Below are positions 11,605 to 49,683 of a DNA stretch of 64,000 nucleotides, in pieces; positions within the stretch are counted from its first letter, which is position 1, and each line of letters starts with the position of its first letter. The translations under genes were made by a program, and so were the position numbers. This DNA comes from an uncultured Planctomycetia bacterium (GTDB lineage: Bacteria > Planctomycetota > Planctomycetia > Pirellulales > Thermoguttaceae), in contig CAWAAL010000024.1 of NCBI GenBank assembly GCA_963779975.1, forward strand, positions 57,153 to 121,152, given 5' to 3'. The notes below the pieces were generated by a model, which was given only the letters and a program-made list of their open reading frames with translations, was not told where the DNA came from and ran no database searches.

Positions 11605-11883
11605 ATGTTGTTCTTGGCGCAATCACTACTCACGATGGCGGGCTTTGAGTACGACGAAATCGACGAAACCTGGGTAGCGCGAATGCCGTTGCGTCCTCTT
11701 GTGGCGGTCGAATGCGACGAGGATCGAGCTTACGTCCGGGAGGCGCTGAGGGAGGTCCAAGCGAGTCTTGACGCTATCGGCTGCGCCTACGACAACTACT
11801 TCGTGGTCAACGGCCGCTTCGTCTCCGTCCCAGGGCCTAGCGCCCGTGCGGCTACGGGTCTGGACGAACAGGATGACGGTTAA
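11605..11883 (+). CDS. hypothetical acidic small protein (92 aa) downstream of element copy 2
   Basis: RBS ggaggatagg before ATG 11605; protein-like composition; overlaps antisense ORF 11626..12048 whose first ~50 codons also look coding (unresolved). Confidence 0.35.
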   Translation: MLFLAQSLLTMAGFEYDEIDETWVARMPLRPLVAVECDEDRAYVREALREVQASLDAIGCAYDNYFVVNGRFVSVPGPSARAATGLDEQDDG

Positions 11884-12071
11884 AGTCGTCCCCATCCTGT
11901 GCAGGGCAGGATCGGATCGAGCCCGCTCAGCCAATGTCTCGTCAATCTGATGGATCATCCGGCAGGATCGGTCCATCAGGTCCCTCGCCTCCTGTTCATT
12001 GATCTTCAGGTTCCACTTCACGTCGTTGAGCCGCAGGTTACCACACAACTGAAGACCGTAATCGTGCGCGC

Positions 12072-12248
12072 CTACCCGGTCACGTTCTTCACGGCTTTCT
12101 TTACCGCGCAGGCAGCCTTTTGGACGGCCTGCTTCGCCTTCCCGACCACTTGGTCGGTCTTTCCTTCGTCACGAAGCTTGTCGTTGCCGGTCAGCGCCCC
12201 GGCGGCTTCCTTGATTCGACCCTTCACCACGTCTGTCTTGCCACCCAT
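12072..12248 (-). CDS. CsbD-family general stress protein (58 aa; below the ORF-track length cutoff)
   Basis: reverse-complement translation MGGKTDVVKGRIKEAAGALTGNDKLRDEGKTDQVVGKAKQAVQKAACAVKKAVKNVTG*; RBS ggagtcacc upstream. Confidence 0.6.
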   Translation of the reverse strand: MGGKTDVVKGRIKEAAGALTGNDKLRDEGKTDQVVGKAKQAVQKAACAVKKAVKNVTG

Positions 12249-12574
12249 GATGGTGACTCCTTTCCTATAAAGCCCGGAATGGAGAATGCAACAGGTAGGG
12301 CCAATGCAGCGAATTTCGGACGTAAGTGCTTCAAAGTGAAGTGGTTCCGCCGATGGCTGCGGTCATTCTCTGTGCCTCGCTGGGGAACAAACTGTTTCCA
12401 GCCAAGATGAAACAGGCCCAGCAATTCGGTCCATGCCGTCTCGTTGGATGGCAGCGGCACGAAGGGCAGCGTAGCCGACAGGCAAGGCTTCCCTTTCATG
12501 AACAAATGCCCTATTGGTTGTATTTAATTACAGCAGCCAAAGCAGGGGCCCACAAGGGTCCGGCGCCAGGAAAG

Positions 12575-12672
12575 GACCTGAACGGCTACTTCTTCTTTAC
12601 GTCGCGGAGAATGAGCGACTCGGCGCGGGTGAAGAGAACGACCTCCTCGCCGGTGACGGTGCTGATGTCGTT
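12575..12672 (-). pseudogene. 3' fragment (~27 codons + 10 nt downstream) of a DUF2294 gene, co-duplicated with element copy 3
   Basis: ctgaacggctacttcttctttacgtcgcggagaatgagcgactcggcgcgggtgaagagaacgacctcctcgccggtgacggtgctgatgtcg matches the 3' end of gene 10837..11241; rc encodes ...DISTVTGEEVVLFTRAESLILRDVKKK*. Confidence 0.6.
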
Positions 12673-12694
12673 TGAAAGAAAGCCAAAAGCTCTA

Positions 12695-12880
12695 TTGCCT
12701 TCGCCGCGTAGCGGCGTATGATAGTTGTATTGGGAGAATCGCGGCGCACTTGATCGCGACCTTTCAACGCAATTGTCGGATGACTAGATAGAGAGCAACC
12801 TGGATGTGCCAGGGGGCTCGTTGAAGAGTAAGCCGACGTGGTCGAATGCCTTCGGGTGTTCCGCCACGTCGGCTTTTTTC
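12695..12880 (+). ncRNA. multi-copy promoter-RNA element, copy 3
   Basis: -35 TTGCCT 12695-700, -10 TATGAT 12717-22 (16-bp spacer); 5' hairpin; core with compensatory cctggatgtgccagg hairpin; terminator gccgacgtgg...ccacgtcggcTTTTTT (12874-79). Confidence 0.65.
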
Positions 12881-12953
12881 GTTTTCGGTGTTGCGGGAAC
12901 AGTCGCAACGACCGAGCATGGTCCTTGGACAATCTCAAAAAGGGAGAGTTATC

Positions 12954-13028
12954 ATGTACATCGGTGGCGGATTGGTTACGCTTGTGATCATCGTCTTGGT
13001 TGTCATGTTCCTCGTTCGCGGCTCTTGA
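12954..13028 (+). CDS. possible 24-aa hydrophobic peptide (MYIGGGLVTLVIIVLVVMFLVRGS), resembles the C-terminal half of DUF3309
   Basis: RBS aaaagggagag 6 nt before ATG 12954. Confidence 0.25.
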   Translation: MYIGGGLVTLVIIVLVVMFLVRGS

Positions 13029-13075
13029 GCGTTCACGAAAGCAAGAACGAATCACAATTCACAAAGGATACTATC

Positions 13076-14764
13076 ATGACCGTACGTCACATTTGCCCAT
13101 GGTGCAGAGTCGCCGCACTGGCAACCCTGGGCGCAATAGTTGGCTTGCACAAGGCTACCGCCGTACCGCCGGGCCCGACGGATGCCGCGGATGGGATACA
13201 AGTGCTCACGCGCGGGCCGGTGCATGAGGCCTTCGCGGAAACGGTGACCTTCGATCCGCAACCGGGCATCGTGGCGCCGAAAGCGCCGCCGGCCGCCATC
13301 GAAGAACTTCCGCCGGACCAGAAACCGGAGGGGGCCAACATCGCCTGGATCCCCGGCTACTGGGCCTGGGACGACGAACGAAGCGACTTCCTTTGGGTCA
13401 GCGGCATCTGGCGCGACCTTCCGCCGAGCCGCCAATGGGTGCCCGGTTATTGGGACCAGTCCGGGCAAGGCTACCAATGGACTTCCGGGTACTGGGCGGA
13501 TGCCCAGGCGAGTAACGTGCAATATTTGCCCGAACCGCCTGTGACCGCCGAAGCCGGTCCCAACATTCCGTCGCCTTCGCCGGACGACACTTGGCTGCCG
13601 GGAAGTTGGCTGTGGCAGCAAAACCGCTATGCTTGGCGTCCCGGTCTCTGGGCCACCGCACATCCGGATTGGGAGTGGGTTCCCGCCCATTACCTATGGG
13701 CTCATCGCGGCTATGTTTTTGTCGACGGCTACTGGGATTACTCCATCGGCCGCCGCGGCGTACTGTTTGCGCCAGTGTATTTCAGTGCGGGCATGTATAC
13801 GCAGCCCCGTTTCTCCTATTCGCCCGCGACGGTGATCGATCTGGATGTTTTCACCAACTGTCTGTTCTTGAGGCCGCAATATCAACACTACTATTTCGGC
13901 GACTACTACGCCGACAATTATCAAGCAGCGGGGTTCTACCCGTCGTATTCGTACAACTCCGGCCGCCATGGCTACGATCCGATTTTCACCCACGAGCGCT
14001 GGCAGCATCGCCAGGACGGACAGTGGGAGCGTCGCATTGCGGCCGACTTCCAGAACCGCCGCGATCACGCGGATGCCCGACCGCCGCGGACGTTGGCGGC
14101 GCAAACAGCATTCAGGGCCGGCGAGGCGACGTCCGGAAAGAGGAGTCCCGTGCTGGCCGTGCCGTTCTCCCAATTCACGAAGAGTCAGAATAGTCCGCTG
14201 CGATTCCAGCCGGTCGATTCGTTGGAGCGACAAAAGCTGGTTCAGCACGTGCAAGCGGTGCAACGATTCCGCGAGCAGCGGCAGAAACTGGAGAACCAAG
14301 CAGCGGCGCCCTCAGCCGCCTCAGCGGCGAGACAATTCGCGCCGGCCAACGGGAGACTTCCCACCTCTCCGATCGCGACGAGGTCAAACACGGAACTCGG
14401 CAAGGATCACGTTCCACCCCAGATGCATGTAGCTCCCAAGCCGGATCTCACGGTCGAGGCCAAGCCGAGAGCGACTCCATCGCTGGAGAAACCGCAGCAA
14501 CGCACCGTGAACCGGCTGCCGCTCGATACGCCGAAACCTGAACCCCGGGCCGAACGGCCGGCACCGAAAGCGGAACCCCGGGTCGAACGGCCGGCACCGA
14601 AAGCGGAACCCCCGGTCGAACGGCCGGCACCGAAACCTGAACCCCAGGTCGAACGCCCAGCGCCGAAACCTGAACCCCAGGTCGAACGCCCAGCGCCGAA
14701 ACCGCCGGCAGAGCGACCGGCAGCGGGACCGAACCGAAATGGACAAAAGGAAAAGGGTAAATAG
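13076..14764 (+). CDS. secreted Trp-rich repeat protein with Pro/Glu-rich C-terminal tandem 11-aa repeats
   Basis: signal peptide 'MTVRHICPWCRVAALATLGAIVGLHKA'; repeated 'GYWxW/SGxW' modules; 5x33-bp DNA tandem repeat 14540..14704 encoding (EP)RVERPAPKA. Confidence 0.6.
   Translation: MTVRHICPWCRVAALATLGAIVGLHKATAVPPGPTDAADGIQVLTRGPVHEAFAETVTFDPQPGIVAPKAPPAAIEELPPDQKPEGANIAWIPGYWAWDDERSDFLWVSGIWRDLPPSRQWVPGYWDQSGQGYQWTSGYWADAQASNVQYLPEPPVTAEAGPNIPSPSPDDTWLPGSWLWQQNRYAWRPGLWATAHPDWEWVPAHYLWAHRGYVFVDGYWDYSIGRRGVLFAPVYFSAGMYTQPRFSYSPATVIDLDVFTNCLFLRPQYQHYYFGDYYADNYQAAGFYPSYSYNSGRHGYDPIFTHERWQHRQDGQWERRIAADFQNRRDHADARPPRTLAAQTAFRAGEATSGKRSPVLAVPFSQFTKSQNSPLRFQPVDSLERQKLVQHVQAVQRFREQRQKLENQAAAPSAASAARQFAPANGRLPTSPIATRSNTELGKDHVPPQMHVAPKPDLTVEAKPRATPSLEKPQQRTVNRLPLDTPKPEPRAERPAPKAEPRVERPAPKAEPPVERPAPKPEPQVERPAPKPEPQVERPAPKPPAERPAAGPNRNGQKEKGK
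14540..14704 (+). repeat. 5 x 33-bp tandem repeat (coding, Pro-rich linker)
   Basis: gaaccccgggccgaacggccggcaccgaaagcg unit repeated with a few substitutions. Confidence 0.8.
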
Positions 14765-15096: not shown

Positions 15097-16311
15097 CTTG
15101 CTTCGCCCGAAGAAATACGAGCTGGAGATTCACGGCGCGAAGGTGAAACCAGGCTTCGAGGTCGATCCCGATGTCCCGGCCTGTCATTCGGAGGTGCGGG
15201 AACGTGTCCATAGGGTCCGGTCAGATCGCCTGTCGCCTTGCGGTTTGAGTCCTTATGACACGCCTTGGCGGCGGAACGACACCGGCCTTGCTGTGCCCAG
15301 TCCCACCGGGCAACCGTCGCTGAACGCCGCACTTTCGCCTCAATCTTCAGCGCCGGAGTCCAATTTTCCCGAACTACAGGCCATTCCCGATCTCGGCCCC
15401 CCGTCGTTCCCCGAAACGAATGGGCGGGAAGGCACGAGCCCGGCCGAGCCAGCCCTTGACCTGACTCGCAGCGTCGGACGGCCGGTCGCGCTTCCGCAGC
15501 AAACGTACACCCGCTCGTCGGAGTTATCCGACCGCTTGACGCAGATCGCACGCGGCAAGGGCATGCTCCCCGGTCAGGGCATCAACGTCTGCTCATAAGC
15601 AACGGCATCGCCCTCATGCACGGCACCGTCCGCACGCCCGGCGACTGCGTCCTGCTGGCGAACGTCCTGGCTCTCGAACCGGAGGTGCGGCAGATTGACA
15701 ACCGCTTGGTCGCCTTCGGTCCTCGGTAGGCTTTTTGGGCGATCGCCGGTGGCCGTTCGGGGTTCCGTGGCATTGACGCTTTGCGGGCGCTATCGTCGCT
15801 TGTACGCACTCCAGGGGGTAACTGGACGGGATTTCGCTGGTGTCGGCCGGCAAGGCCGGGTTCAGGCGATTACCGGGTCGATCGAGATTGTTGGCTGCGG
15901 CACGAATTGACCCGCCGACCTGAAACAGGGCGCGTAGCGTCGGTCCTGCACCACGGCATCCGGTCGAACCACCACCAGACGGCGCCCATGGCCACGAATT
16001 TGGCGGACCACGAGCACGGATTCCGCATTAAGAAGTGGACACCGAATGAGAGTGATGCCCAGAGTGCTGGGCCGGATCAGAAGGACAATGGGCCATGGCA
16101 GAAAGTGAAACCTTCCGGGCGCTGCACGACAACAGTACGACACCAAAGACAAACAGTGCGGCGCTCGGAGGTTCCTCCCGCGCCGGAAAAGCCGAGCCGA
16201 CACCTGTGCCAATGGCGCCGCACGCATGCGCGCTACAGTACCTCATTTCCATCATCAAGAACTCGCAACGCAGGAGCCCGTCACAATAGAACGACTGAAG
16301 GATGGTGCCTC

Positions 16312-17763: not shown

Positions 17764-17954
17764 CGGCCTGCCGGGACCGACTGGCAGTGGTCCATCTCCG
17801 CTTCCTTGCCGGCGCAACCATCTTGGACGGCAGAGCCTTGGCGATAAATGGCGCGGTAACACTCGATGACAACACGATCACCGCGCCAAGTTCGGTTCCA
17901 GAACCCGTATCCCTAAGCCCCATTGCCTTTGCCCTTTGGCGGCGTAAAATGTGA
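17764..17954 (+). pseudogene. C-terminal remnant of a DUF3494 (ice-binding-like) protein with PEP-CTERM-like tail; 5' part missing (abuts the sigma gene stop)
   Basis: 'ATILDGRALAINGAVTLDDNTITAP' vs 'ATILNGRALAQTGAVTMDTNTISNV' in the 18149..20779 protein; tail 'SSVPEPVSLSPIAFALWRRKM*' where the last codons coincide with the -35/spacer/-10 of element copy 4. Confidence 0.5.
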
Positions 17955-18105
17955 GTGTTGGAAGAGTCGCATGGCAGATCGCGCTGCTCCAACGTAATTG
18001 TCGGATGACTAGAAAGAGGGCAACCCGGCCCTGCCGGGGGGCTCGTTAGCGAGTAAGCCGACGTGGTCGAATACCTCCGGGTGTTCCGCCACGTCGGCTT
18101 TTTTC
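17924..18105 (+). ncRNA. multi-copy promoter-RNA element, copy 4 (complete)
   Basis: -35 TTGCCT 17924-29, -10 TAAAAT 17945-50; 5' hairpin gttggaagagtcgcatggcagatcgcgctgctccaac; core; terminator with TTTTTT 18099-104; gene ATG at 18149. Confidence 0.7.
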
Positions 18106-18148
18106 GTGCTTGGTTGCGCATCACAGTCACTTCACACGGAGACCCACG

Positions 18149-20779
18149 ATGTTCTGCCCGAGTTTCGCTCCCCTGTTCGGAAATTCCTGGTCTCGCAAGC
18201 GCACCCGCCGGACGCCGGTTGCGAAACGCCTCACTCGGCCGCTGTCGCTGCTTCGCCTGGAATACCTGGAAGATCGCCGAATGCTCACGAGTATTCTGGG
18301 CTCGGCGGGGAGTTTCGCGGTTCTGGGCGCCTCGACGGTGACCAATACCGGCCCGACCACCATCACCGGAAATCTGGGTGTGTACGCGGGTAGTTCGATC
18401 ACGGGCCTGGGGAGCATCACGATCACGGGAACGGTACACCAAACGGATGCGGTCGCGCAGTTGGCGCAGGCCGATAACACCACCGCGTACAATGGTCTGG
18501 CGAACATGCCGTTCAACAGCGACTTGACGGGCGAGGATCTGGGTGGACTCACGCTCGTGTCGGGCGTCTATCATTTTGACTCGGCGGCCCAGTTGACGGG
18601 AACACTCACGCTCAACGCCCAGGGCAACAACAATGCGTTCTGGGTTTTCCAGATAGGGAGCGGGCTGACGACCGCCAGCAACTCGGCGGTTCAGGTGATC
18701 AATTTCGGTTCGAATGGCGGTTCCGATGACGGCGTGTTCTGGCAGGTCGGCAGTTCCGCCACGCTCGGCACCGCCACTTCGTTCGAAGGGAATATTCTCG
18801 CGCTGGCGAGCATCACCCTCAACACCACCGCAACCATTCTGAACGGCAGGGCCTTGGCGCAAACCGGCGCGGTGACGATGGATACCAACACCATCAGTAA
18901 CGTCTGCCCGCTGGGCGGCCCCGGTAACGGCGGCCCCGGCTACAGCGGCGGCCTTGAGTTCAATCCCATTGGCAAAGTCGTGCCCGTTACCCCGGGCGTC
19001 ATCCCGCCAACCGGGCCAGGCGTCATCGGCGGCATGAAGTTCGACGACCTGAACGGGAGTGGGGTGCAGAATGCCGCCGATCCGGGCCTGGCGGGGTGGA
19101 CGGTTTACGTAGACTACAACGACAACGGCGTGTTCGACAGCGCCACGGAGCCGTCGGCAGTGACGGGCCCGGGGGGAACGTATACGATCACGGGCGTGAC
19201 GCCGGGCACCTGGAAGGTGCGGGAAGTCGGCCAGACAGGCTGGACGACCTCGCTTCCTGCGACAAGCGACGTCTACGGCGCCTACCAGCTAGTCACCGTG
19301 CCGGCGAACGGGTCGTTGGTAGGGGTCGAATTCGGCAATTATGAGCAGACCTCGATCCACGGCTACAAGTTCAACGACCTGAACGGCAACGGCGTGGACA
19401 ACAGCGAGCCGCGGCTTGCCGGCTGGACGATCGTGCTGGTCGGCACGACCGGCGCGGGCACTGCGGTCTCGACCACCACGACGACGGGAGCCGACGGCCA
19501 GTATTCGTTCACCGGCCTGGCGCCGGGAACCTACACCGTGAGCGAGCAGAACCAGACCGGCTGGACGCAATTGGCCGGCGGGGCGACGTTCACGCTCACC
19601 AGCGGCGAAGAGGCGGTGGCCTATACCGGTGAGGCGGGCACGCTGTTGCCCGGTCAGGCCGAGGTGCTCACTGCCGGGCTGGCCTTCGGCAACCATCATC
19701 GTAATGTGATCGTCATCGCGCAGGCCAAGAGTCCGAACACGCCGCAATTGGTCCGAGTGATCGACGAGGGGAGCGGGGCCGTGTTGTCGCAGTTCGCACC
19801 GTACGGCAAAACCTTCCAGGGCGGCATTCGGATCGCCACCGGCGATCTCATCGGCAATGGCGCCGACGAGATCGTTACGGCGCCCGGATGGAGCACGGTT
19901 GCGGTCGTCAAGGTGTACAGCCAGACGGGCGTTCTGCTGACGTCCTTCGATCCGTACGGCCCGACGTTCACGGGCGGCGTCCAGGTGGCGATCGCCGACG
20001 TCGATGGCGACGGGTTGAACGACATCATCACGGTTCCCAGCTACGGGCCTGCCGAGATGAAGGTGTTCCGGAACCTGGGCGTCGTGGGTGGAGTGCCCAC
20101 GTTCAATGCATCGCTGCCCTACAGGGAATTCCTCGCCTTTCCGTCGTCGTTCATCGGCGGCGCGGTGGTTACCGCGGCCGACATGGGAAGCACCCCGCTG
20201 GCAAACGGACCGTTCGTCCCCGGGCTGCTGGACGGGAAGGCGGAAATCGTCGTCGGGAGCGGCGCCGGCATGAAGACCACGGTGAAGGTGTTCGACGTTA
20301 GCCGCATGACCACACTCATGCCCAACAGTGTGGCCGCGGCCGTTGCGAGTTTCACTCCTTTCAGCACAGCCACTTTCACTTATAAAGGGGGGGTGTCGCT
20401 CAGCGTGGCGAGGATCAGCGCCAGTCTCACCCCGGACATCATCGTGGGGGCCGGCGTCGCCGGCAATTCCCTGGTGGACGTTTGGGCCTGGAACACTCCT
20501 TCCCCCACGTTGTCCAGTTTATCGGCCAATGGCATGGGCTTTGCCGCGTTCACCGGTCCGAGTCAAACCGCGCCGGTTGAGGTAGCGGCAATGGACACTG
20601 CCGGTAACGGCATCGCGGATACGATTATTGCCGTGCAGGGACCTGGTGGGACCACGGGCCAGATCCGCGCGTTCAAGATTACCAGCGTCTCGCCGCTCCA
20701 GGTTTCGCCACCCACGACAGTCCCCGGCAGCTATCTGCAACCCTATTTCATCGATCAGGTTTTCGCGGCATACGTGTGA
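18149..20779 (+). CDS. large secreted protein: DUF3494 (ice-binding-like) domain + 2 SdrD B-like/Cna-B-type domains + FG-GAP/VCBS repeats
   Basis: 'LGSAGSFAVLGASTVTNTGPTTITGNLGVYAGSSITG' (DUF3494 hallmark); 'DDLNGSGVQNAADPGLAGWTVYVDYNDNGVFD', 'NDLNGNGVDNSEPRLAGWTIVLVG' (SdrD-B-like); 'GDLIGNGADEIVTAPG', 'ADVDGDGLNDIITVP' (FG-GAP); N-terminal 'LRLEYLEDRRMLTS' motif. Confidence 0.75.
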   Translation: MFCPSFAPLFGNSWSRKRTRRTPVAKRLTRPLSLLRLEYLEDRRMLTSILGSAGSFAVLGASTVTNTGPTTITGNLGVYAGSSITGLGSITITGTVHQTDAVAQLAQADNTTAYNGLANMPFNSDLTGEDLGGLTLVSGVYHFDSAAQLTGTLTLNAQGNNNAFWVFQIGSGLTTASNSAVQVINFGSNGGSDDGVFWQVGSSATLGTATSFEGNILALASITLNTTATILNGRALAQTGAVTMDTNTISNVCPLGGPGNGGPGYSGGLEFNPIGKVVPVTPGVIPPTGPGVIGGMKFDDLNGSGVQNAADPGLAGWTVYVDYNDNGVFDSATEPSAVTGPGGTYTITGVTPGTWKVREVGQTGWTTSLPATSDVYGAYQLVTVPANGSLVGVEFGNYEQTSIHGYKFNDLNGNGVDNSEPRLAGWTIVLVGTTGAGTAVSTTTTTGADGQYSFTGLAPGTYTVSEQNQTGWTQLAGGATFTLTSGEEAVAYTGEAGTLLPGQAEVLTAGLAFGNHHRNVIVIAQAKSPNTPQLVRVIDEGSGAVLSQFAPYGKTFQGGIRIATGDLIGNGADEIVTAPGWSTVAVVKVYSQTGVLLTSFDPYGPTFTGGVQVAIADVDGDGLNDIITVPSYGPAEMKVFRNLGVVGGVPTFNASLPYREFLAFPSSFIGGAVVTAADMGSTPLANGPFVPGLLDGKAEIVVGSGAGMKTTVKVFDVSRMTTLMPNSVAAAVASFTPFSTATFTYKGGVSLSVARISASLTPDIIVGAGVAGNSLVDVWAWNTPSPTLSSLSANGMGFAAFTGPSQTAPVEVAAMDTAGNGIADTIIAVQGPGGTTGQIRAFKITSVSPLQVSPPTTVPGSYLQPYFIDQVFAAYV

Positions 20780-22296: not shown

Positions 22297-22443
22297 TTCG
22301 ATCGGACCCGCGCAATTGGAAATTGCAACAAACTGCGACACGTCGGCACAAACAGCATAACCGTCAAACTTTGCCAACTCGCGGGTGCAAGGTCGCCAAC
22401 AAGCAGCCAAAGCAGGGCCCGACAAGGGTTCGGCGCCACGAAA

Positions 22444-22548
22444 GGACCTGAACGGCTACTACTTCTTTACGTCGCGGAGAATGGGCGACTCGGCGCGGGT
22501 GAAGAAGAACGACCTCCTCGCCGGTGACGGTGCTGATGTCATTTGAAA
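22444..22548 (-). pseudogene. 3' fragment of a DUF2294 gene, co-duplicated with element copy 5 (same breakpoint as the 12575 fragment)
   Basis: ctgaacggctactacttctttacgtcgcggagaatgggcgactcggcgcgggtgaagaagaacgacctcctcgccggtgacggtgctgatgtcatttgaaagaaggcc. Confidence 0.55.
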
Positions 22549-22565: not shown

Positions 22566-22748
22566 TTGCCTTTACCCTTTGGCGGCGTACAATGTGACTG
22601 TTGGAAGAGTCGCATCGCAGATCGTGCTGCTCCAACGAAGTTGTCGGATGACTAGAAAGAGGGCAACCCGGCCCTGCCGGGGGGCTCGTTGACGAGTAAG
22701 CCGACGTGGTCGAATACCTCCGGGTGTTCCGCCACGTCGGCTTTTTTC
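22566..22748 (+). ncRNA. multi-copy promoter-RNA element, copy 5 (complete)
   Basis: -35 TTGCCT 22566-71, -10 TACAAT 22588-93; hairpin gttggaagagtcgcatcgcagatcgtgctgctccaac; core; terminator TTTTTT 22742-47; sigma gene ATG at 22778. Confidence 0.7.
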
Positions 22749-22777
22749 ATTTTCTGCCAGGTTCGGAGTACCCTCCC

Positions 22778-23791: not shown

Positions 23792-23811
23792 TTCCAAGGG
23801 AAAGGGACAAC

Positions 23812-30237: not shown

Positions 30238-30239
30238 GT

Positions 30240-30360
30240 CAGCCCCGCTATTTCTTCTTCGCGTCGCGGAGCATCGGCGACTCGGCCAGGGTGAAAAGAA
30301 CGACCTCCTCGCCAGTGAGGGTGCTTATGTCATGGCGCATGCTCAACGCAATCCAGGCAA
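30240..30360 (-). pseudogene. 3' fragment of a DUF2294 gene with its own ATG (mini-ORF MMIAWIALSMRHDISTLTGEEVVLFTLAESPMLRDAKKK*), co-duplicated with element copy 6
   Basis: ctatttcttcttcgcgtcgcggagcatcggcgactcggccagggtgaaaagaacgacctcctcgccagtgagggtgcttatgtcatggcgcatgctcaacgc. Confidence 0.5.
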
Positions 30361-30396: not shown

Positions 30397-30581
30397 TTGC
30401 CTTTTTTGCGTGGCTGGTTACAATGACCGGTGGGAAGAGTCGCGGCGGACTAGACTGTGGCTTTTCACTGGAATTGTCGGATGACTAGATAGAGGGCAAC
30501 CCGGCCGTGCCGGGGGGCTCGGTAGCGAGTAAGCCGACGTGGTCGAATACCTGCGGGTATTCCGTCACGTCGGCTTTTTTC
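30397..30581 (+). ncRNA. multi-copy promoter-RNA element, copy 6 (complete)
   Basis: -35 TTGCCT 30397-402, -10 TACAAT 30419-24; core tgtcggatgactagatagagggcaacccggccgtgccgggggg; terminator TTTTTT 30575-80. Confidence 0.7.
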
Positions 30582-37930: not shown

Positions 37931-37979
37931 CTTTCCAGCGGTGGAGGCGAAGGACCACGAGTCGAGCAGCGAGGCCAGA

Positions 37980-38336: not shown

Positions 38337-38522
38337 TTGCCTTTTCCCTTCGGCGGCGTACAATTTCAGTGTTGGAAGAGTTGCGGGGCACTTGTTCGCG
38401 GCTCTCCAGTGAAATTGTCGGATGACTAGATAGAGGGCAACCTGGCTGTGCCGGGGGGCTAGTTGAAGAGTAAGCCGACGTGGTCGAACACCTTAGGGTA
38501 TTCCGCCACGTCGGCTTTTTTG
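38337..38522 (+). ncRNA. multi-copy promoter-RNA element, copy 7 (complete; 3' extension box aacggtcggaatccagcacggaag shared with copy 2)
   Basis: -35 TTGCCT 38337-42, -10 TACAAT 38359-64; hairpin gttggaagagttgcggggcacttgttcgcggctctccag; core with cctggctgtgccgggg; TTTTTT 38515-21. Confidence 0.7.
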
Positions 38523-38605: not shown

Positions 38606-39052
38606 ATGAGTCGAGATGCAATTGACAGAATGGAAATCCTCATGGTCGAGGATAACTTGCAGAATGCCAACGGCACGATACAGGCCCTCAAATGGGGCAA
38701 CGTGCAATGCCGAGTGAGCCTGGTCTGCGATGACGAGGAAGCGATCCGCTTTCTCTACCGTAAGGGTGAATTCGCCAAGGCGCCGACGCCCAACCTGATC
38801 CTGCTGGACATGCAGTTGCCCAAGGAGGAAGGTCAGCGCTTGCTTGCGGAAATCCGCGCCAACGAAGAACTCAAGGACATTCCCGTTGTGGTCCTCACCG
38901 GTTCACTGGATCACCGAGCGGGTCTTCACGTCCAAGAGATTCAGGTGGACGGCTTGATCACGCACCCCGTGGAGTTGGACAAGTTCATCGGTGTGGTCAA
39001 GTCGCGTCGCCGGTCTTGGTTGACCGACCTTGCGCTGTCCTCCATTGCCTGA
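38606..39052 (+). CDS. single-domain response regulator (REC only)
   Basis: 'ILMVEDNLQNANGTIQALKW...LILLDMQLPKEEGQRLLAEIRANEELKDIPVVVLTGS'; RBS ggaggtga. Confidence 0.75.
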   Translation: MSRDAIDRMEILMVEDNLQNANGTIQALKWGNVQCRVSLVCDDEEAIRFLYRKGEFAKAPTPNLILLDMQLPKEEGQRLLAEIRANEELKDIPVVVLTGSLDHRAGLHVQEIQVDGLITHPVELDKFIGVVKSRRRSWLTDLALSSIA

Positions 39053-40091: not shown

Positions 40092-40257
40092 ACGACTGGA
40101 TGGGAAGGCATGAACCTGGCGCGGAGCAATCCCCATTTTCTCTTTACGTCGCGGAGAATTGGCGACTCGACCGGGAGACCTCCTCGCGGCTGACGGCGCC
40201 GAACACCACGGCCCATGCCTCAACAGCTTGATACTGTGGGAAAAAGCAATGGGCCTA

Positions 40258-40444
40258 TTGCCTTTGTACCCTCATGACGTACAATGATGGTGTTGGAAGA
40301 GTCGTGGCGCGATTGATCTCGACTCTCCAGCGAACGTGTCGGATGACTAGATGAAGAGCAGCCCGGCTGTGCCGCGGGGGCTCGTTAGTGAGTAAGCCGA
40401 CGTGGTCGAATACCTTGGGGCATTCCGCCACGTCGGCTTTTTTC
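40258..40444 (+). ncRNA. multi-copy promoter-RNA element, copy 8 (complete; preceded by a degraded DUF2294 tail at ~40130-40200)
   Basis: -35 TTGCCT 40258-63, -10 TACAAT 40280-85; hairpin ggaagagtcgtggcgcgattgatctcgactctcc; TTTTTT 40438-43. Confidence 0.7.
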
Positions 40445-40453: not shown

Positions 40454-40525
40454 AGAACGTTCGGAAGAAATTGGTGCCAGTCACACGTTTGTCCCGGGCT
40501 TCCGCTCATTTCTTCCGAACGTTCT
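40454..40525 (+). promoter_or_regulatory. 5'-UTR hairpin: 18-bp perfect inverted repeat with 36-nt loop, 20 nt upstream of RBS/ATG 40545; paralogous copy at 48350-48421
   Basis: agaacgttcggaagaaat ...36 nt... atttcttccgaacgttct. Confidence 0.6.
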
Positions 40526-40544: not shown

Positions 40545-41531
40545 ATGCGTAGTGTTTTGATCATGACAGGCGTGGCTCTCGCGCTGGTCGCGATGGCGGT
40601 TGCCCAAGGACCACTGAAGAGCGTATCGGGCGACTTGCCCGACAAGCCCGCCGCGTCCGATACGGCAACGACGGCAACCGCCGCGTTTGTGGCCAGCCTG
40701 GCGCAGCCGCAAGACGAGAAGTCGATCCGGCTCGCCGCCGAGGCGTTTGCCAAGGCGTATAATGCGGGCAATGCCCAGACGATCGCGCAACTGTTCATAC
40801 CCAGCGGGGAGATAGTCAGCGAAGAAGGCCAATCTACTCAGGGCCGCGAAGCGATCGAGCAAGAGTTCGCAGGAATCTTCAAGGAACATCCCAAGACCCA
40901 CATGGTTCTGGCCATCGGCTCCATTCGGTTCATCGGTCCGGACATGGCCGTCGAGGACGGGACGGCGACCGTGACCCATGGGCCCGACGAGCCCGCCCAG
41001 CGCAGTCCCTACTCGGTGACCTACGCCAGGCAGGACGGCAGGTGGCTGACGGCCAGCTCGCGAGACCTTCCCGATGACACGCCCACGCCCGAGGAGCAGC
41101 TCAAGCAACTCCAGTGGATGATCGGCGAATGGGTGGACGAAAGCCCGGAAGCCCTGATCATGACCTCCTACCGCTGGACCGACAATCAATGCTACATCTT
41201 GAGCGAATTCAAGGTCCAGGTCGGCGGCCGGCCGGTGATGACCGGTACCCAGCGCATCGGCTGGGACCCCTTGGCAAAGAAGATCCGTTCCTGGGTCTTC
41301 GACTCGGAAGGCGGGTTTGGCGAAGGTCTCTGGACGCGGGAAGGCAACCAATGGATCGTGAAAAGGACCGGCGTGACGCGTGACGGAAAGACCGCCTCGG
41401 CGACCAACATCATCGCCCGAGTATCCAAGGACCGAATGACGTGGCAACAACGGGACCGCATCGTCGGCGGGGAGAAGACGCCCGACATCGCGGAAACCCC
41501 GATCACGCGTAATCCGCCCGCCCCCAAATAA
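40545..41531 (+). CDS. secreted protein with two SnoaL-like/DUF4440 (NTF2-fold) domains
   Basis: signal peptide 'MRSVLIMTGVALALVAMAVAQG'; 'AFAKAYNAGNAQTIAQLFIPSGEIV...GREAIEQEF' and a second NTF2-like half. Confidence 0.5.
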   Translation: MRSVLIMTGVALALVAMAVAQGPLKSVSGDLPDKPAASDTATTATAAFVASLAQPQDEKSIRLAAEAFAKAYNAGNAQTIAQLFIPSGEIVSEEGQSTQGREAIEQEFAGIFKEHPKTHMVLAIGSIRFIGPDMAVEDGTATVTHGPDEPAQRSPYSVTYARQDGRWLTASSRDLPDDTPTPEEQLKQLQWMIGEWVDESPEALIMTSYRWTDNQCYILSEFKVQVGGRPVMTGTQRIGWDPLAKKIRSWVFDSEGGFGEGLWTREGNQWIVKRTGVTRDGKTASATNIIARVSKDRMTWQQRDRIVGGEKTPDIAETPITRNPPAPK

Positions 41532-45002: not shown

Positions 45003-45007
45003 GTTCC

Positions 45008-46570
45008 CTAGTTGTCCACGTCCTTCCGGAGGGGCAATTGGACCACGATCCGGGTTCCCTTGCCCAAGCTGCTCGTGATGGTCGCGGATCCCCCAAACAA
45101 CTTTGCGCGTTTCTGAATTCCTTCCAAGCCAAAGTGGCCGTCGCCGACTTCACGGGGATTGAAGCCGATGCCCCAGTCTTGGACCTCAATCAGAACGTGC
45201 CGGTTCCGCCGGGTCAACCTGACGAGCACGCGCTCGCTCTGGCTGTAGCGGCGGGCGTTGGCAAGGCCCTCTTGCAGGATCCGATAAATGGTATTTTCCG
45301 ACGCGGGCTCCCACCGCTCGCCGTCGAGGTTATGGACGAACTCGATCTCTGGTTTGCCCGGAGCGCTGCCTTGGGAGATAAGGTCCTCGATGGCAGCCAC
45401 CACGCCGCATTCGTCCATGAGCGGTGAACGCAGTCCACGGATCAACCGGCGTGCTTCCCGCATACAGTCGTCAAGCGCTCTTAGTCCAGTCTCGAAACTC
45501 GTCCAGACCTCGCCGTCTCCCTCTCCTTTGAACCGGCTGAACGCCGCAAAGTGCGTGATCGCGGCGGCGAGTTGCTGGACGAATCCGTCGTGGATTTCGC
45601 AGGAAACCACTTGTCGATCCCGGTCCTGCAATTCCAGCAAGTGGCGGAGATACTGCTGCTCCTTGAGCGACTGTTCCTCTGTCTGCCGACGCTCCTTGAT
45701 CTCCGGCCTCGACGGTTCGGCGGCTTGATCGCGGCCAAGCCCGGCGGCGTGCCCAGGGACGGGATCGGTATCCAGGCCCAGGAACTGCGGACCTTGCGAC
45801 GCCCACTCGGTCGGGTCCAAGGGCCCCGTGACCCTAGTAAGACCGAGATCCAGCGTGCGGAGTTGTCTCAACCCCTTGAGGTGCTCCATGCCGGCGTCGC
45901 TGACCTCGGTGCCGCGGAGGCCCAGCGACTGGAGTTGCCTCAATCCCTTGACGTGTTCCAGGCCGGCGTCCGTGACCTTGGTGCCGCCGAGGTCGAGTTC
46001 TCGAAGTCGGGGCAGACCCCTGAGGTGCTTCAGATCGGCGCCGGTAGCCCAGAAGCACAATTCTTCGAGTTCGGGCAGACCGCGGAGGTGCTGCAAACCG
46101 GCATCGGTGACTTCGGTGCCGCCGAGCCCCAGTTCTTGGAGTTGCCGCAACGCCTGGAGGCGCTTCAGACCGGCGTCGGTGACCTTGGCGCCGCTGAGGT
46201 CCAGCGTCTGGAGTTGGGGCAGATCCTCAAGGTGCTCCAGGCCGGCGTCGCTGACCTCGGCGCCGCCGAGGTCCAGCGTCTGGAGTTGGAACAGACCCTT
46301 GAGGTGTTCCAGACCGGCGTCGCTGACCTTGGTGCCGCCGAGGTCCAGCGTTTGGAGTTGCGTCAGCCCCTTCAGGTGTTCCAAACCGGCGTCGCCGACT
46401 TCCGTGTGGGAGAGATACAACTCTCGGAGCAGGGGCAAGTCCTTGAGGCACTCCAAGGCGTCGTCGTCGAGCAGGCACCAGGAGAGGTCAACGGATATCG
46501 CAACGTCGCCTCGCAACAACTGGATCTTGGCAATCGCCTCTGCGCAATCCGGGTAATCTGGCTTCATCAT
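45008..46570 (-). CDS. cytoplasmic leucine-rich-repeat (9 x 24-aa LRR) - HisKA_3 - HATPase_c sensor histidine kinase
   Basis: repeats 'LxxLxxLDLGGTKVSDAGLEHLKG'; 'VVSCEIHDGFVQQLAAAITHFAAF' (HisKA_3 H-box); 'LQEGLANARRYSQSERVLVRL...DWGIGFNP...GLEGIQKRAKLFGG'. Confidence 0.75.
   Translation of the reverse strand: MMKPDYPDCAEAIAKIQLLRGDVAISVDLSWCLLDDDALECLKDLPLLRELYLSHTEVGDAGLEHLKGLTQLQTLDLGGTKVSDAGLEHLKGLFQLQTLDLGGAEVSDAGLEHLEDLPQLQTLDLSGAKVTDAGLKRLQALRQLQELGLGGTEVTDAGLQHLRGLPELEELCFWATGADLKHLRGLPRLRELDLGGTKVTDAGLEHVKGLRQLQSLGLRGTEVSDAGMEHLKGLRQLRTLDLGLTRVTGPLDPTEWASQGPQFLGLDTDPVPGHAAGLGRDQAAEPSRPEIKERRQTEEQSLKEQQYLRHLLELQDRDRQVVSCEIHDGFVQQLAAAITHFAAFSRFKGEGDGEVWTSFETGLRALDDCMREARRLIRGLRSPLMDECGVVAAIEDLISQGSAPGKPEIEFVHNLDGERWEPASENTIYRILQEGLANARRYSQSERVLVRLTRRNRHVLIEVQDWGIGFNPREVGDGHFGLEGIQKRAKLFGGSATITSSLGKGTRIVVQLPLRKDVDN
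45850..46420. repeat. ~72-bp near-perfect tandem DNA repeats encoding the LRR units
   Basis: recurring ...ccggcgtcgctgacctcggtgccgcggaggcccagcgactggagttgc... blocks. Confidence 0.7.
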
Positions 46571-46670: not shown

Positions 46671-46862
46671 TTGCTTTCCTCATGCCGCGCCATACAATGG
46701 TTAATGGAGGGGTGGCGAAGTCGAAAGCCGCTCGCCCCAGAAGTGAATTGGAAGTCGTCGGACGACTAGATAAAGAGCAAGCCGGCCGTGCCGGGGGGCT
46801 CGTTAGTGAGTAAGCCGACGTGGCGGAATACCTCCGGGTGTTCCGCCACGTCGGCTTTTTTC
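46671..46862 (+). ncRNA. multi-copy promoter-RNA element, copy 9 (variant: TTGCTT -35, tcgtcggacgactag core)
   Basis: -35 46671-76, -10 TACAAT 46693-98; core gtcgtcggacgactagataaagagcaagccggccgtgccgggggg; TTTTTT 46855-61. Confidence 0.65.
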
Positions 46863-46899: not shown

Positions 46900-47115
46900 A
46901 TGAGAAGGCTGATGTTCGTGGTCGTTTTGCTCGTGATCGGCATCGCCGGCTTCGGGTATTACCGCGGTTGGTTCGCTTTCACGGTGGACAAAGACAAGTT
47001 CCACCAAGATGAACAAACAACCAGGGAAAGGGTGCAAGGCGCCGGGCAAGAGGCCAAGGAAAAGGTCGACAATCTGACTGGCGGCAAGGTCAAAGAACCC
47101 CAGCGCCAACCCTGA
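46900..47115 (+). CDS. small N-terminally anchored membrane protein (71 aa)
   Basis: 'MRRLMFVVVLLVIGIAGFGYYRGWFAF...'; RBS cagaggatcg. Confidence 0.45.
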   Translation: MRRLMFVVVLLVIGIAGFGYYRGWFAFTVDKDKFHQDEQTTRERVQGAGQEAKEKVDNLTGGKVKEPQRQP

Positions 47116-47200
47116 GACTTTACACTTTGTGGATGCTAATCACGGACCATGTTGGCATTTCGCCAACTTGGGCACACTATACGTGAAGGAGAATTTGATC

Positions 47201-47377
47201 ATGTTACGGCTTGCTATCGTGTTCCTCGTCATCGCCCTGATCGCCGGGTTCCTCGGCTTTGCAGGAGTGGCACAATTATCCTGGGACGGAGCGAAGATCC
47301 TCTTCGTTGTCTTCCTGATCCTCGCCGTGCTCTCTTTCGTGGGGCACGGTTTCCGGAGGCGACCCTACTGGGGGTAA
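47201..47377 (+). CDS. DUF1328 (UPF0391) small membrane protein
   Basis: 'MLRLAIVFLVIALIAGFLGFAGVAQLSWDGAKILFVVFLILAVLSFV'; RBS gaaggagaat. Confidence 0.6.
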   Translation: MLRLAIVFLVIALIAGFLGFAGVAQLSWDGAKILFVVFLILAVLSFVGHGFRRRPYWG

Positions 47378-47384
47378 CGCATAG

Positions 47385-47571
47385 TTGCCTTTTTCCCCTT
47401 GCGGCGTATAATGATGGTGCTGGCAGAACCGCGACGCACTTCATCGCGACTCTGGCAGTGAAATTGTCGGATGACTAGATAGAGAGCAACCCGGCCGTGC
47501 CGGGGGGCTCGTTAGCGAGTAAGCCGACGTGGTCGAATACCTGCGGGTGTTCCGTCACGTCGGCTTTTTTG
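47385..47571 (+). ncRNA. multi-copy promoter-RNA element, copy 10 (complete), directly upstream of hsp20
   Basis: -35 TTGCCT 47385-90, -10 TATAAT 47407-12; hairpin; core tgtcggatgactagatagagagcaacccggccgtgccgggggg; TTTTTT 47565-70, 29 nt before the ATG. Confidence 0.7.
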
Positions 47572-47599
47572 TTTTCTTACCCGAAAGGAAGGTGCCACA

Positions 47600-48010
47600 A
47601 TGTCGGAAAACCGCATCAAGATCGCTCCCGAGACAGTAGCGTATGCTGACTCGGAGACGCGCAAGCTCGTGGTGGAATTCGCCATCCCGGGAGCGCCCAC
47701 GGATTCCATCGACGTGAAGATCCTGGGAGACAGCATCCACCTGACGGCGCCCGCAAGGGACATCGAGTATGTTTCGGCCCTGGCTTTAGCCTGGCCGGTG
47801 AAACCGGACAAAGCCGAAGCGATCTACGAGCACGGACTGCTCCGCATCGAGGTGCCCTTCAAAGATCCGATGGAGGATGCCGTGAAGGTTGCCATCAAGA
47901 CAGCCGGTACCGAAACCAAGCCCGCAGTAATCGCGACTCCAGCGGTTCCGCCGGCGGTTGGACGCGGCAGTAGCAAGCCGCTGGCCGTCGAACCGGCCTT
48001 AACGGTCTGA
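47600..48010 (+). CDS. Hsp20/alpha-crystallin family small heat-shock protein
   Basis: 'ETRKLVVEFAIPGAPTDSIDVKILGDSIHLTA...AIYEHGLLRIEVPF'; RBS gaaaggaaggtg. Confidence 0.7.
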   Translation: MSENRIKIAPETVAYADSETRKLVVEFAIPGAPTDSIDVKILGDSIHLTAPARDIEYVSALALAWPVKPDKAEAIYEHGLLRIEVPFKDPMEDAVKVAIKTAGTETKPAVIATPAVPPAVGRGSSKPLAVEPALTV

Positions 48011-48138
48011 GCCGCGGGCCTTAACGGCCTGAGCCACGCCAGGGCACGCGTTGCCCCAGGCCTCGGTTTCTCAGCGGCGACAGGCTGTTGATCACGCTAA
48101 CTGCCGTGCCAACTTGCACGGCCATTTGGAAAGGCCGC

Positions 48139-48339
48139 TTGTGCTTCTCTTTCCGTACGGTATAATTGGAGTGTGCTGCGAGGCGGCGGAGAGCTCCGCG
48201 CGACTTGCTGACGCAGTGGATTTGAATTCGTCGGATGACTAGATAAAGAGCAACTCGGCCGGAATGGCCGGGGGGCGCGTTGAAGAGTAAGCCGACGTGG
48301 GCGAATGCCTTTGGGTGTTCGGCTACGTCGGTTTTTTTG
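48139..48339 (+). ncRNA. multi-copy promoter-RNA element, copy 11 (most divergent)
   Basis: -35 TTGTGC 48139-44, -10 TATAAT 48161-66 (16-bp spacer); core tcgtcggatgactagataaagagcaactcggccggaatggccggggggcg; terminator gccgacgtgggcgaatgcctttgggtgttcggctacgtcggTTTTTTT. Confidence 0.6.
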
Positions 48340-48349
48340 TTTTCTGCTT

Positions 48350-48421
48350 AGAACGTTCGGAAGAAATTGGTGCGAGTCCCGCGTTTTTCCAGGGCTTCCG
48401 CCCATTTCTTCCGAATGTTCT
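48350..48421 (+). promoter_or_regulatory. 5'-UTR hairpin paralogous to 40454-40525 (18-bp inverted repeat, 1 mismatch), 27 nt upstream of ATG 48448
   Basis: agaacgttcggaagaaat ... atttcttccgaatgttct. Confidence 0.55.
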
Positions 48422-48447
48422 TGGGAAACCACCACAGGAGGTGATCA

Positions 48448-49683
48448 ATGAATAATGTTCGGCCGCTTTTCGTATCGACCTATCCGCCGGAAGCCTGCGG
48501 ACTGGCGACCTTCACCCGCGACTCGGCCGACGCCGTGGACATGGCGGCGGGCGCGCGCGTCTCGTCGATTGCGGCGATCCGGAAGACCGCCGCGCTTTGC
48601 TACGACGATCCGCGCGTAGTCCACGTCATCGACAATGGCCGCCCGGACGCATACCGCCTCGCCGCGGAGGCGGCCAACGACGGCCCCTGGGACGTGGTGA
48701 GCTTGCAGCACGAATTCGGCCTTTATCCCGACGATTGGGGCCGACGCGTGCTGGACTTCGTGCGCGACTGCCATAAACCGATCGTCACCACGTTCCACAC
48801 GCTCCTGACCGAGCCCACCGCGCTGCCGCGATACATCATTCAGAAATTGGCGGCCCGCAGCCAAGGCGTCATCGTGATGACGAGAGTCGCGGCGCGGCTG
48901 TTGGAGCAGATCTACCAGGTGTCCGGGGCAAAGGTACAGGTGATTCCCCATGGCGTGCCGGAGGTTCCCTATCAACGCGACGGCTCGCACAAGACACGGT
49001 TGGGGTTCGCCGGCCGGCAGGTGATATGCACCTTCGGACTGATCAATCGAGGCAAGGGACTCGAATACATGATTGGGGCCATGCCGCGGATCGTCGCCGC
49101 TTGCCCGGACGCCTTGTACTTGATCGTGGGCGTTACCCACCCGCAGGTCAAACGGCAGGAGGGCGAGGTCTACCGAGAAAGCCTGGTCGCGATGACCGAG
49201 AAACTGGGCGTTGCCGCCAACGTCCGTTTCGTCAACAAGTATCTCAGCCTGGCCGACCTGCTGGTGCATTTGCAGGCGTGCGACGTGTACGTTACACCCT
49301 ATCCGGGCAAAGACCAGATTGCCAGCGGCACCTTGGCCTATGCCTTGGCAGCCGGCGGCGCGGTGGTCAGCACCCCCTACCTCTATGCCGAAGAAGTCCT
49401 GGCCAACGGGCGCGGTCTGCTCGTGCCGTTTGGTGAAAGCCGTGCCATGGCCGACGCCACGTTGCGGTTCCTGACAGACCCCGTGTTCCAAATGGAGACT
49501 CGACGCAAAGCGTACCGCTACGCAAAACCCATGTTCTGGCCGAACGTGGGCCTCAGGTACTTGGACTATTTCACGCGTGTTTCCGCCCGCAGAACGGCGG
49601 TCGTCCCCCCATACCACCGAGAGTTTGTGACGTCAGGCAGCGAGCGCGAGCCCGTGCAGGTCGTACAAGCAGGAGGCATCTGA
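48448..49683 (+). CDS. GT4-family glycosyltransferase
   Basis: '[16 protein letters not shown]', C-terminal 'EGFGLPAL'-region analogue '[31 protein letters not shown]'; RBS aggaggtga. Confidence 0.7.

Follow-up and report, generated by a model that had tools for sequence, protein, structure and literature searches.

A conserved, terminator-containing leader RNA precedes general-stress-type genes in Planctomycetota

The window analysed here is a 64,000-nucleotide (nt) stretch of DNA from an uncultured Planctomycetia bacterium of the Thermoguttaceae (assembly GCA_963779975.1, contig CAWAAL010000024.1, positions 57,153 to 121,152 of the forward strand), with a G+C content of 61% and the planctomycete marker families BBP7, PF07638 ECF sigma factor and DUF1579. 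A repeat search of the window revealed a direct repeat unit of ~110-190 nt in 11 copies, all on the + strand, and each of these cassettes comprises a sigma-70-like promoter, a structured RNA of ~110-150 nt and a long intrinsic terminator (Table 1). A covariance model built from 131 homologues recovered ten full copies in the window with scores of 105-124 bits, as well as a truncated copy (69 bits) and a terminator-only remnant (22 bits), and its matches were confined to the + strand between 9 and 48.4 kb. Each of the ten full cassettes and the truncated one (10.2-48.3 kb) stands 5' of a + strand gene, with spacers of ~30-110 nt behind the full copies. Copy 1 has lost the 3' arm of its terminator together with the U-run, while the remnant lies between the genes for a hybrid histidine kinase and a protein in which a receiver (REC) domain is fused to DUF2294.

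Read from 5' to 3', the cassette starts with a near-consensus promoter, TTGCnT-N16-TAnAAT, and continues with a variable 5' hairpin, which is optional, the nearly invariant box GUCGGAYGACUAGA and a covarying irregular stem, P2/P3, which an invariant GAGUAAGCC separates from the terminator hairpin. Alignment of the window copies gave TTGCCT-N16-TACAAT as the -35/-10 pair, then the variable hairpin and the invariant UUGUCGGAUGACUAGA, 3' of which lies the stem-loop GC.ACCCGGCC...GCCGGGGGGC.C; the structured domain extends from the 5' box to GAGUAAGCCGAC. The terminator is a hairpin of 20 base pairs (bp; 13+7 bp), CCGACGUGG.CGAAUACC-loop-GGUGUUC.GCCACGUCGG, followed by six to eight U residues, and the predicted fold of copy 5 has an energy of -73.9 kcal/mol (z = -4.5 versus shuffled sequences). 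The 5' box can also fold as GUC-GGAY-GAC with GGA in the tetraloop; each core has one such conserved GGA hairpin, and a second GGA often lies within the stem of the 5' hairpin. With at most one mismatch allowed, the promoter pattern TTGCNT-N16-TANAAT occurs ten times in the window versus 0.98 expected, and nine of these occurrences are at cassettes. Copy 2, which is divergent from a DUF2294 gene of type A (DUF2294-A), is without a canonical -35/-10 pair, and copy 11 has a weaker promoter (TTGTGC-N16-TATAAT) and a longer P3 loop. A leader peptide within the box (AUG-ACU-AGA-UGA) was considered and rejected on sequence alone, because its AUG is ACG in about one third of copies. An element just 3' of the U-run (GUUCUUGG) was likewise set aside as a conserved part of the leader, being found in only 25-35 of 134 copies, mostly from one clade and in front of orthologous genes.

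An initial annotation of this DNA had described the genes behind the cassettes as a general-stress and regulatory set, and a Pfam domain scan bears out most of its assignments: the DUF3494 protein behind copy 4, the sigma-70 paralogue behind copy 5, the DUF1269/YflT-like protein behind copy 6, the response regulator behind copy 7, whose sole domain is Response_reg, the SnoaL-like protein behind copy 8 and the GT4 gene that heads a glycan/desaturase cluster behind copy 11, in addition to the CsbD and DUF2294 genes that sit among the copies. The Hsp20 label given to the gene behind copy 10 stands only in a weak form, as the Pfam match (E 0.004) misses the cut-off and the best match among solved structures is a small heat-shock protein at E 0.0035. 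Small membrane proteins had been proposed behind copies 2, 3 and 9; hydrophobic open reading frames (ORFs) follow copies 3 and 9, but the product encoded behind copy 2 is acidic, has no Pfam match and by eye has no membrane span. Nine of the ten genes that follow full copies have a relative behind the leader RNA in another genome, the exception being the gene behind copy 9, and for the DUF3494 protein this relative is found in a Tepidisphaeraceae bin (L073) and thus in a different class.

Table 1. Cassettes, the genes behind them and associated features in the window. L numbers designate related loci in other genomes; aa, amino acids.
Feature	Position	Strand	Evidence and remarks
Cassette remnant, terminator-type hairpin without U-run	9040-9094	+	repeats; covariance model
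Receiver domain fused to type-A-like DUF2294 domain	9126-9974	+	domain scan; just 3' of hybrid histidine kinase gene (7184-8995)
Copy 1, truncated	10249-10422	+	promoter 10249-10276, 5' hairpin, core, terminator 5' arm; model match 10317-10422
DUF2294/MpsC type A gene	10837-11241 (also read as 10837-11217)	-	Pfam E 9e-36; divergent from copy 2
Copy 2, core and terminator	11419-11529	+	covariance model, 117.9 bits
Conserved hypothetical protein, 92 aa, behind copy 2	11605-11883	+	relative in L107 also behind leader
CsbD gene among the copies, not behind a leader	12072-12248	-	Pfam E 3e-13
DUF2294-A 3'-terminal fragment (last ~30 codons and downstream sequence)	12576-12675	-	abuts copy 3 promoter
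Copy 3, promoter, 5' hairpin, core, terminator	12695-12879 (model 12769-12879)	+	repeats, covariance model, promoter scan
Tiny hydrophobic ORF behind copy 3	12955-13028	+	ORF reading
WXXGXW-repeat protein, 562 aa, second behind copy 3	13076-14764	+	ORF reading, domain scan
csrA remnant, C-terminal	15122-15208	+	upstream of RpoD-like sigma factor gene; sole csrA in window
Copy 4	17923-18104 (model 17994-18104)	+	repeats, covariance model, promoter scan
Ice_binding (DUF3494)/SdrD_B/FG-GAP protein behind copy 4	18110-20779	+	Pfam E 5e-56 (Ice_binding/DUF3494)
Further DUF2294-A 3' fragments	22402-22542, 30238-30344, 40140-40177	-	before copies 5, 6 and 8; one before copy 5 abuts promoter
Copy 5	22566-22747 (model 22637-22747)	+	repeats, folding, covariance model, promoter scan
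Sigma-70 paralogue behind copy 5	22706-23791	+	Pfam Sigma70 regions 2 and 4; relatives behind leaders L026, L029, L083
Copy 6	30397-30580 (model 30470-30580)	+	repeats, covariance model, promoter scan
YflT/DUF1269 stress protein behind copy 6	30637-31170	+	Pfam YflT E 4e-8, DUF1269 weak; relatives L007, L019, L042, L063
Copy 7	38337-38521 (model 38411-38521)	+	repeats, covariance model, promoter scan
Single-domain response regulator behind copy 7	38606-39052	+	Pfam; relative L075
Copy 8	40258-40443 (model 40332-40443)	+	repeats, covariance model, promoter scan
DUF4440/SnoaL-like protein behind copy 8	40545-41531	+	Pfam; relatives L077, L086, L097
Copy 9	46671-46861 (model 46751-46861)	+	repeats, covariance model, promoter scan
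Hydrophobic ORF of 71 aa, then DUF1328 (47129-47377), behind copy 9	46900-47377	+	Pfam
Copy 10	47385-47570 (model 47460-47570)	+	repeats, covariance model, promoter scan
Weakly Hsp20-like protein, 136 aa, behind copy 10	47600-48010	+	relative L030
Copy 11	48139-48338 (model 48224-48338)	+	copy alignment, covariance model
GT4 glycosyltransferase, gene of unknown function, fatty-acid desaturase and GH130, behind copy 11	48448-53467	+	Pfam; GT4 relatives behind leaders L032, L101, L104

Scanning 185,579 species genomes with the pattern GTCGGAYGACTAGA-N35-65-GAGTAAGCC yielded at least 133 matches in at least 118 genome stretches, and the matches listed fall in Planctomycetia and Phycisphaerae and span Pirellulales, Planctomycetaceae, Isosphaeraceae, Gemmataceae, Thermoguttaceae, Phycisphaerae and Tepidisphaeraceae. 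The homologues were drawn from among the matches listed from this exact-pattern scan; they do not include the species of the window itself, and the listed loci nearest to the window, at 78-90% nucleotide identity, come from metagenome-assembled genomes (MAGs) of soil planctomycetes. Across the 131 aligned sequences, 96.6% of the cells in the stem and terminator are paired, and changes on both sides were found in 24 of the 35 pairs and in 140 cells, compared with 29 ± 4.6 cells after shuffling and no more than 56 in controls with slid partners; none of 500 shuffles reached the observed values. Pair 87-134 of the terminator, for example, is AU in 107 sequences and GC in 15. Both boxes are fixed by the search pattern, and in ~30 further copies, which a combination of the covariance model and a fuzzy search identified in the flanks of the same loci, they are nearly invariant, the exact 5' box being present in 145 of 162 copies. 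We regard the cassettes as copies of a single ancient, structured 5' leader RNA of Planctomycetota. Four of the loci that carry the planctomycete leader (L095, L029, L074 and L051) are labelled as a Methanomassiliicoccaceae archaeon, a delta-proteobacterium or Victivallales; a DUF2294 gene is present in L029, L074 and L095 and csrA in L074 and L095, and these contigs are probably mis-binned or mislabelled MAG contigs. Rfam 15 returned no family at the gathering threshold for the whole window or for 14 related loci, and a permissive Rfam scan of copy 5 gave chance-level matches only (E >= 1.3). No description of the leader RNA, and nothing relevant on DUF2294/YbcI or on planctomycete small RNAs and stress regulation, was found in the open-access literature; an earlier description in a subscription journal is possible.

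Sigma-70-like hexamers lie upstream of almost every listed match in these genomes and the same type of terminator lies downstream, a run of at least four T residues occurring within 90 nt of the match in all but five of 144 pattern matches. Phylum-wide promoter scoring is weak evidence in this respect, since its threshold was also passed by 62 of 141 shuffled upstream regions. The 5' hairpin is considered optional because the -10 box lies just ~8-15 nt 5' of GUCGG in a minority of the listed matches. No shared non-sigma-70 promoter motif of the kind that marks a SigB- or EcfG-type regulon was found, the common hexamers being sigma-70-like. The conserved part of the cassette is the RNA and not the promoter, whose hexamers are ordinary sigma-70-like sequences. 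The initial annotation had asked which of four sigma factors in the window recognises the promoter; all four genes are present (at 15781, 22706, 43268 and 57412), but with hexamers of this ordinary type the question of an alternative sigma factor may be the wrong one.

The genes behind the leader in the related loci were identified by crude ORF calling, which placed the first gene past the terminator on the same strand in 115 of 136 copies, a number that rose to at least 121 (at least 89%) after homology rescue. Pfam analysis of 99 downstream proteins revealed DUF2294/MpsC in 32, Transgly_assoc (GlsB/YmgE type) in five, DUF3309 and DUF1328 in four each, and HSP20, CsbD, YflT and DUF4440/SnoaL in three each, while the remainder include GT4, sigma-70, receiver-domain, HSP70 (DnaK) and mechanosensitive channel proteins. 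From reading their sequences, we take further proteins behind leaders to be BON-domain, ferritin-like and KaiC-like proteins. The families behind the leader are hallmark members of the general stress regulons of SigB, RpoS and EcfG. The description of the window's genes as a stress and regulatory set is therefore right, and it extends far beyond the window, since other genomes too have these families behind the leader. The accompanying proposal, that one promoter type and one leader RNA precede this set, also finds support in the covarying conservation of the RNA, in the nine of ten matched genes and in the phylum-wide recurrence of stress families, from which we infer co-regulation of the downstream genes.

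The family most often found behind the leader, DUF2294, comprises two types of protein, A and B. The type A gene of the window has more than 8000 homologues, the best 120 of which are all at least 82% identical to it. Of 162 leader copies, 40 have a divergent DUF2294-A gene upstream and 36 a DUF2294-B gene directly behind the terminator, with both present at 20, and csrA comes next after DUF2294-B in 23 of 33 loci (e.g. L001, L008, L056 and L095). This defines a core module of divergent DUF2294-A, leader, DUF2294-B and csrA, and within the linked operon csrA is the most conserved member. Locus L119 has three leader-headed operons: one in which csrA (2848-3045), directly behind the leader, is followed by DUF3309, a further gene and sigma70, the whole being divergent from DUF2294-A; a second that encodes KaiC, KaiB, a PAS protein and DUF2294-A (8369-10820); and a third with DUF2294-B. 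The protein behind the leader in L022 is, as we read its sequence, presumably KaiC-like, and because of this protein and the KaiC-KaiB operon behind an L119 leader, KaiBC clock-type proteins seem to belong to the stress circuit. In the window, the cassette cluster adjoins an upstream signalling block on the + strand (4114-9974) that encodes a CheB methylesterase, a CheR methyltransferase, a PAS protein, a PAS-HisKA-HATPase-REC hybrid kinase and the receiver-DUF2294 protein, and in L118 a protein with a CheB methylesterase domain is encoded directly behind the leader. A sequence search found no solved relative of DUF2294. With no such relative and no sign of RNA binding in the fold model, the idea of DUF2294 as an RNA-binding domain was set aside. 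The GGA-tetraloop hairpin GUC-GGAY-GAC, which we take to resemble CsrA sites, agrees with the csrA linkage.

A very strong intrinsic terminator closes every leader, a feature that the initial annotation, at least in the finding followed up here, did not weigh. The unit is therefore expected to be either an attenuator or a small-RNA gene, as opposed to a plain promoter followed by an untranslated leader. The start codon lies 2-110 nt 3' of the U-run, and this spacer includes a GGAGG-type ribosome-binding site; because it leaves no room for a promoter, the downstream genes would be transcribed only by read-through of the terminator, which would make the leader an attenuator, either conditional, as we prefer, or constitutively leaky. 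It has a covarying structured domain, a position 5' of a same-strand gene and an intrinsic terminator at its 3' end, all as expected of attenuators. We favour, as the likelier interpretation, a transcription attenuator common to the copies, with termination that would be conditional, through which a general-stress regulon would be defined. Most transcripts would stop at the terminator as an RNA of 110-150 nt, and a common signal would let the polymerase run on into the stress gene. General-stress-type genes would in this way come under one control together with regulators, namely the sigma-70 paralogue and response regulator in the window and CsrA and KaiBC elsewhere, so that the leader probably puts the whole stress regulon under one RNA-based switch. 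Our first candidates for the signal are proteins of the core module, either CsrA acting through the GGA-in-loop hairpin GUC-GGAY-GAC or a DUF2294 protein; our second candidate is an ion or small stress metabolite that would bind to the invariant internal loops.

How such a switch might operate is suggested by folding predictions for the 131 sequences. RNAalifold pairs the 5' GUCGG with CCGAC at the foot of the terminator 5' arm to form a helix, P1, which is present in the minimum-energy fold of 123 of the 131 transcripts when these are cut before the terminator 3' arm; in the full-length transcript the terminator is favoured by a median of 8.4 kcal/mol. The predicted competition between P1 and the terminator is arranged as in a classic ON switch under kinetic control. 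Several observations weigh against a conditional attenuator of this kind. Among 36 metagenomic copies with a U8 to C change, 29 keep A87, leaving a C-A mismatch, and seven have G87, a share of 19% compared with a background of 13-15%, and the rare 5'-strand variants in the genome set, few in number, are uncompensated; as neither set shows compensation, P1 is a folding prediction only. The untranslated regions after the terminators show no enrichment of CGGA(A/G) motifs (15 of 74 versus 11 ± 3), and at most 15 of 136 copies are without a confirmed same-strand gene. Furthermore, the terminator is of unusual length, its sequence is conserved in all copies and no copy has a different expression platform; in this respect the leader resembles a small-RNA gene or an element recognised by a protein more than it does a typical riboswitch.

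These last points bear directly on the possibility that the cassettes are a multi-copy family of stand-alone, trans-acting small RNAs, in which the terminated product of 110-150 nt is the functional molecule and the genes behind it receive incidental leak-through. Such RNAs could titrate CsrA in a distributed manner through the GGA hairpin, or could base-pair through the invariant boxes, stretches of which are predicted to be unpaired. In each copy, a strong promoter and a very strong terminator of conserved sequence delimit a short transcript, as expected of such a gene and equally of the attenuator favoured above, and a small-RNA role would also accommodate the conservation of csrA above the rest of the linked operon, the copies without a confirmed same-strand gene and the lack of covariation support for the antiterminator helix P1. 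However, a trans-acting RNA would not require a separate copy for every target gene, and such a role would leave unaccounted for both the position of at least 89% of copies, 2-110 nt before a same-strand gene with no room for a promoter, and the recurrence of the same gene families behind the leader across classes; the single conserved GGA hairpin is also unlike CsrB/RsmZ. We therefore regard a stand-alone, trans-acting role as possible but unlikely, while noting that trans and cis roles may coexist. Somewhat less probable still, in our estimation, is a strict small-molecule riboswitch, in which the rod formed by P1, the internal loop and P2/P3 would bind a stress-related metabolite, second messenger or ion; the ligand would lock P1 and so block the foot of the terminator, giving an ON switch. 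Nothing specific speaks for this possibility. A conserved, covarying domain that abuts a terminator, occurs many times per genome and precedes a coherent gene set would suit a riboswitch, as would the early formation of P1 in truncated transcripts, but P1 shows no compensatory change, the expression platform does not vary between copies, the gene set does not allow a ligand to be deduced, and the tight linkage to a conserved protein-gene pair and csrA points instead to a protein partner.

The initial annotation had also raised the alternative of a mobile promoter cassette repeatedly captured upstream of such genes, that is, a mobile or recombinogenic promoter-terminator repeat with no RNA function of its own that came to lie before genes by chance. 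Local duplication, the narrow sense in which this alternative is right, did occur: copies 4 and 5 are 95% identical across 190 nt, and 3' fragments of DUF2294-A have been carried along 5' of copies 3, 5, 6 and 8. A ghost of the unit formed by copy 5 and the sigma gene is likewise found at 37852-37938, where a promoter-like -35 region is followed by pieces of the sigma gene (22954-22983, 90%; 23742-23798, 91%), as if most of a duplicated copy-5 unit had been lost by internal deletion. In L026, the leader of the sigma gene still has a full-length DUF2294-A gene upstream. What mobility leaves unexplained is the deep conservation of the RNA, with compensatory stem changes over two classes of the phylum, and its linkage to the same gene families in distant genomes; moreover, the copies resemble each other most closely in the RNA core, less so at the cassette ends, and no transposase was found among the scanned ORFs of the window. 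Chance capture of a mobile repeat is thus very improbable as an account of the cassettes, and only local duplication is retained.

The attenuator interpretation can be compared with known systems. Regulon-type riboswitch leaders with terminator platforms include c-di-GMP-I/GEMM-I in Geobacter and the ydaO c-di-AMP riboswitch. Like these, the planctomycete leader has many copies per genome and a covarying domain before an intrinsic terminator, 5' of a same-strand set of physiologically related genes, but it has no Rfam match, its terminator is conserved in sequence in all copies and its predicted switching helix is without covariation support. Protein-dependent antitermination leaders respond to the ANTAR regulators EutV, AmiR and NasR, to LicT/SacY or to PyrR, CsrA also acts on transcript elongation, and the controlling trans-acting protein is often encoded nearby. 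A short conserved RNA by a terminator, linked to a conserved divergent DUF2294 gene, to an operon of DUF2294 and csrA and to the fusion of a receiver domain with DUF2294, is reminiscent of this arrangement; unlike in those systems, no ANTAR, CAT or PyrR domain was found in the scanned ORFs, the DUF2294 fold model has no sign of RNA binding and CsrA is a candidate only. With CsrB and RsmX/Y/Z the leader has in common the csrA linkage, GGA in a hairpin loop and a short terminated RNA that is expected to be abundant, whereas it differs in its position before genes, its large conserved non-GGA structure and its single conserved GGA hairpin, the several GGA loops per RNA of a CsrB/RsmZ-type sponge not being found. 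The CsbD, YflT, GlsB/YmgE, DUF1328 and Hsp20 families are common to the SigB regulon of Bacillus, the EcfG/PhyR regulon of Alphaproteobacteria and the RpoS regulon of E. coli, and presumably so are the BON-domain and ferritin-like proteins that we recognised by eye; in contrast to those regulons, the shared element here is an RNA leader with a terminator that follows an ordinary sigma-70-like promoter. On our interpretation, the cassettes would represent a new class of terminator-containing cis-regulatory leader RNA.

One RNA motif already described from planctomycetes, Rhodopirellula-1, is mainly planctomycetal, occurs in clustered copies (36 in R. baltica) 5' of short hypothetical genes, has no Rfam accession and has the consensus AACMA...U-GCAC-CGG-A ... 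C-CGG-UGA...CGUU, with no terminator included (Weinberg et al. 2010, PMC2864571). The leader shares with this motif only its clustered, multi-copy occurrence in planctomycetes, and the two were not equated, as the boxes AAC...CGUU and U-GCAC-CGG-A / C-CGG-UGA of the published alignment are absent from the cassette core. Conversely, the cassette boxes are absent from the first 200 of the 438 files of supplementary alignments with flanks that accompany that study. Two 85%-identical hairpins with an ~18-bp stem (AGAACGUUCGGAAGAAAU...AUUUCUUCCGAACGUUCU) were observed in the window at 40455-40525 and 48351-48421, where they lie 3' of the terminator and 5' of the start codon, that of the SnoaL-like gene in the first case and that of the GT4 gene in the second. 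These hairpins, which follow copies 8 and 11, were also considered as Rhodopirellula-1 motifs and rejected, the boxes of the published alignment being absent from them.

Elsewhere in the window, a phosphoketolase gene that shares an operon with genes for a HAD hydrolase, acetate kinase and PPK2 is split into overlapping + strand ORFs (XFP_N, 26744-28042; XFP and XFP_C, 27951-29150), a frameshift that would make it a pseudogene or else reflect a sequencing error. Four tandem copies of a 21-nt unit (TTTCCCCGTCAGGAAGCAAT), which could be a repeated binding site, lie at 61316-61398, at the junction of an IMPDH/GMP-reductase-like gene (60249-61295, - strand) and an ORF (61387-61956, - strand) whose 3' end they partly overlap. 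Coding tandem repeats were found at 14498-14737, where a 33-nt unit (PKPEPRVERPA-type) falls in the C-terminal part of the WXXGXW protein that follows copy 3, and at 45828-46466, where a 72-nt leucine-rich-repeat unit lies within the gene for an LRR histidine kinase (45008-46570, - strand).

We found no account in the open-access literature of how Planctomycetota, an unusual and large phylum, organise their general stress response, and one bolder picture, which we consider unlikely and offer as speculation, is that this response is run by RNA and not by an alternative sigma factor: a phylum-wide leader would gate dozens of stress genes through conditional termination, the CsrA/DUF2294 module, itself under leader control, would throw the switch, and the terminated leaders would act as a CsrA sponge that closes a feedback loop. 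At the more cautious level of a shared attenuator, the leader would provide a sequence-defined handle on the planctomycete stress response, with its copies marking putative regulon members in any genome. It represents a large, deeply conserved and well-covarying class of structured RNA that is missing from Rfam, and it is a candidate for a riboswitch or a protein-RNA antitermination system of a new kind. It would also tie DUF2294, a family with thousands of homologues and no assigned function, into one circuit with CsrA, KaiBC and a sigma-70 paralogue.

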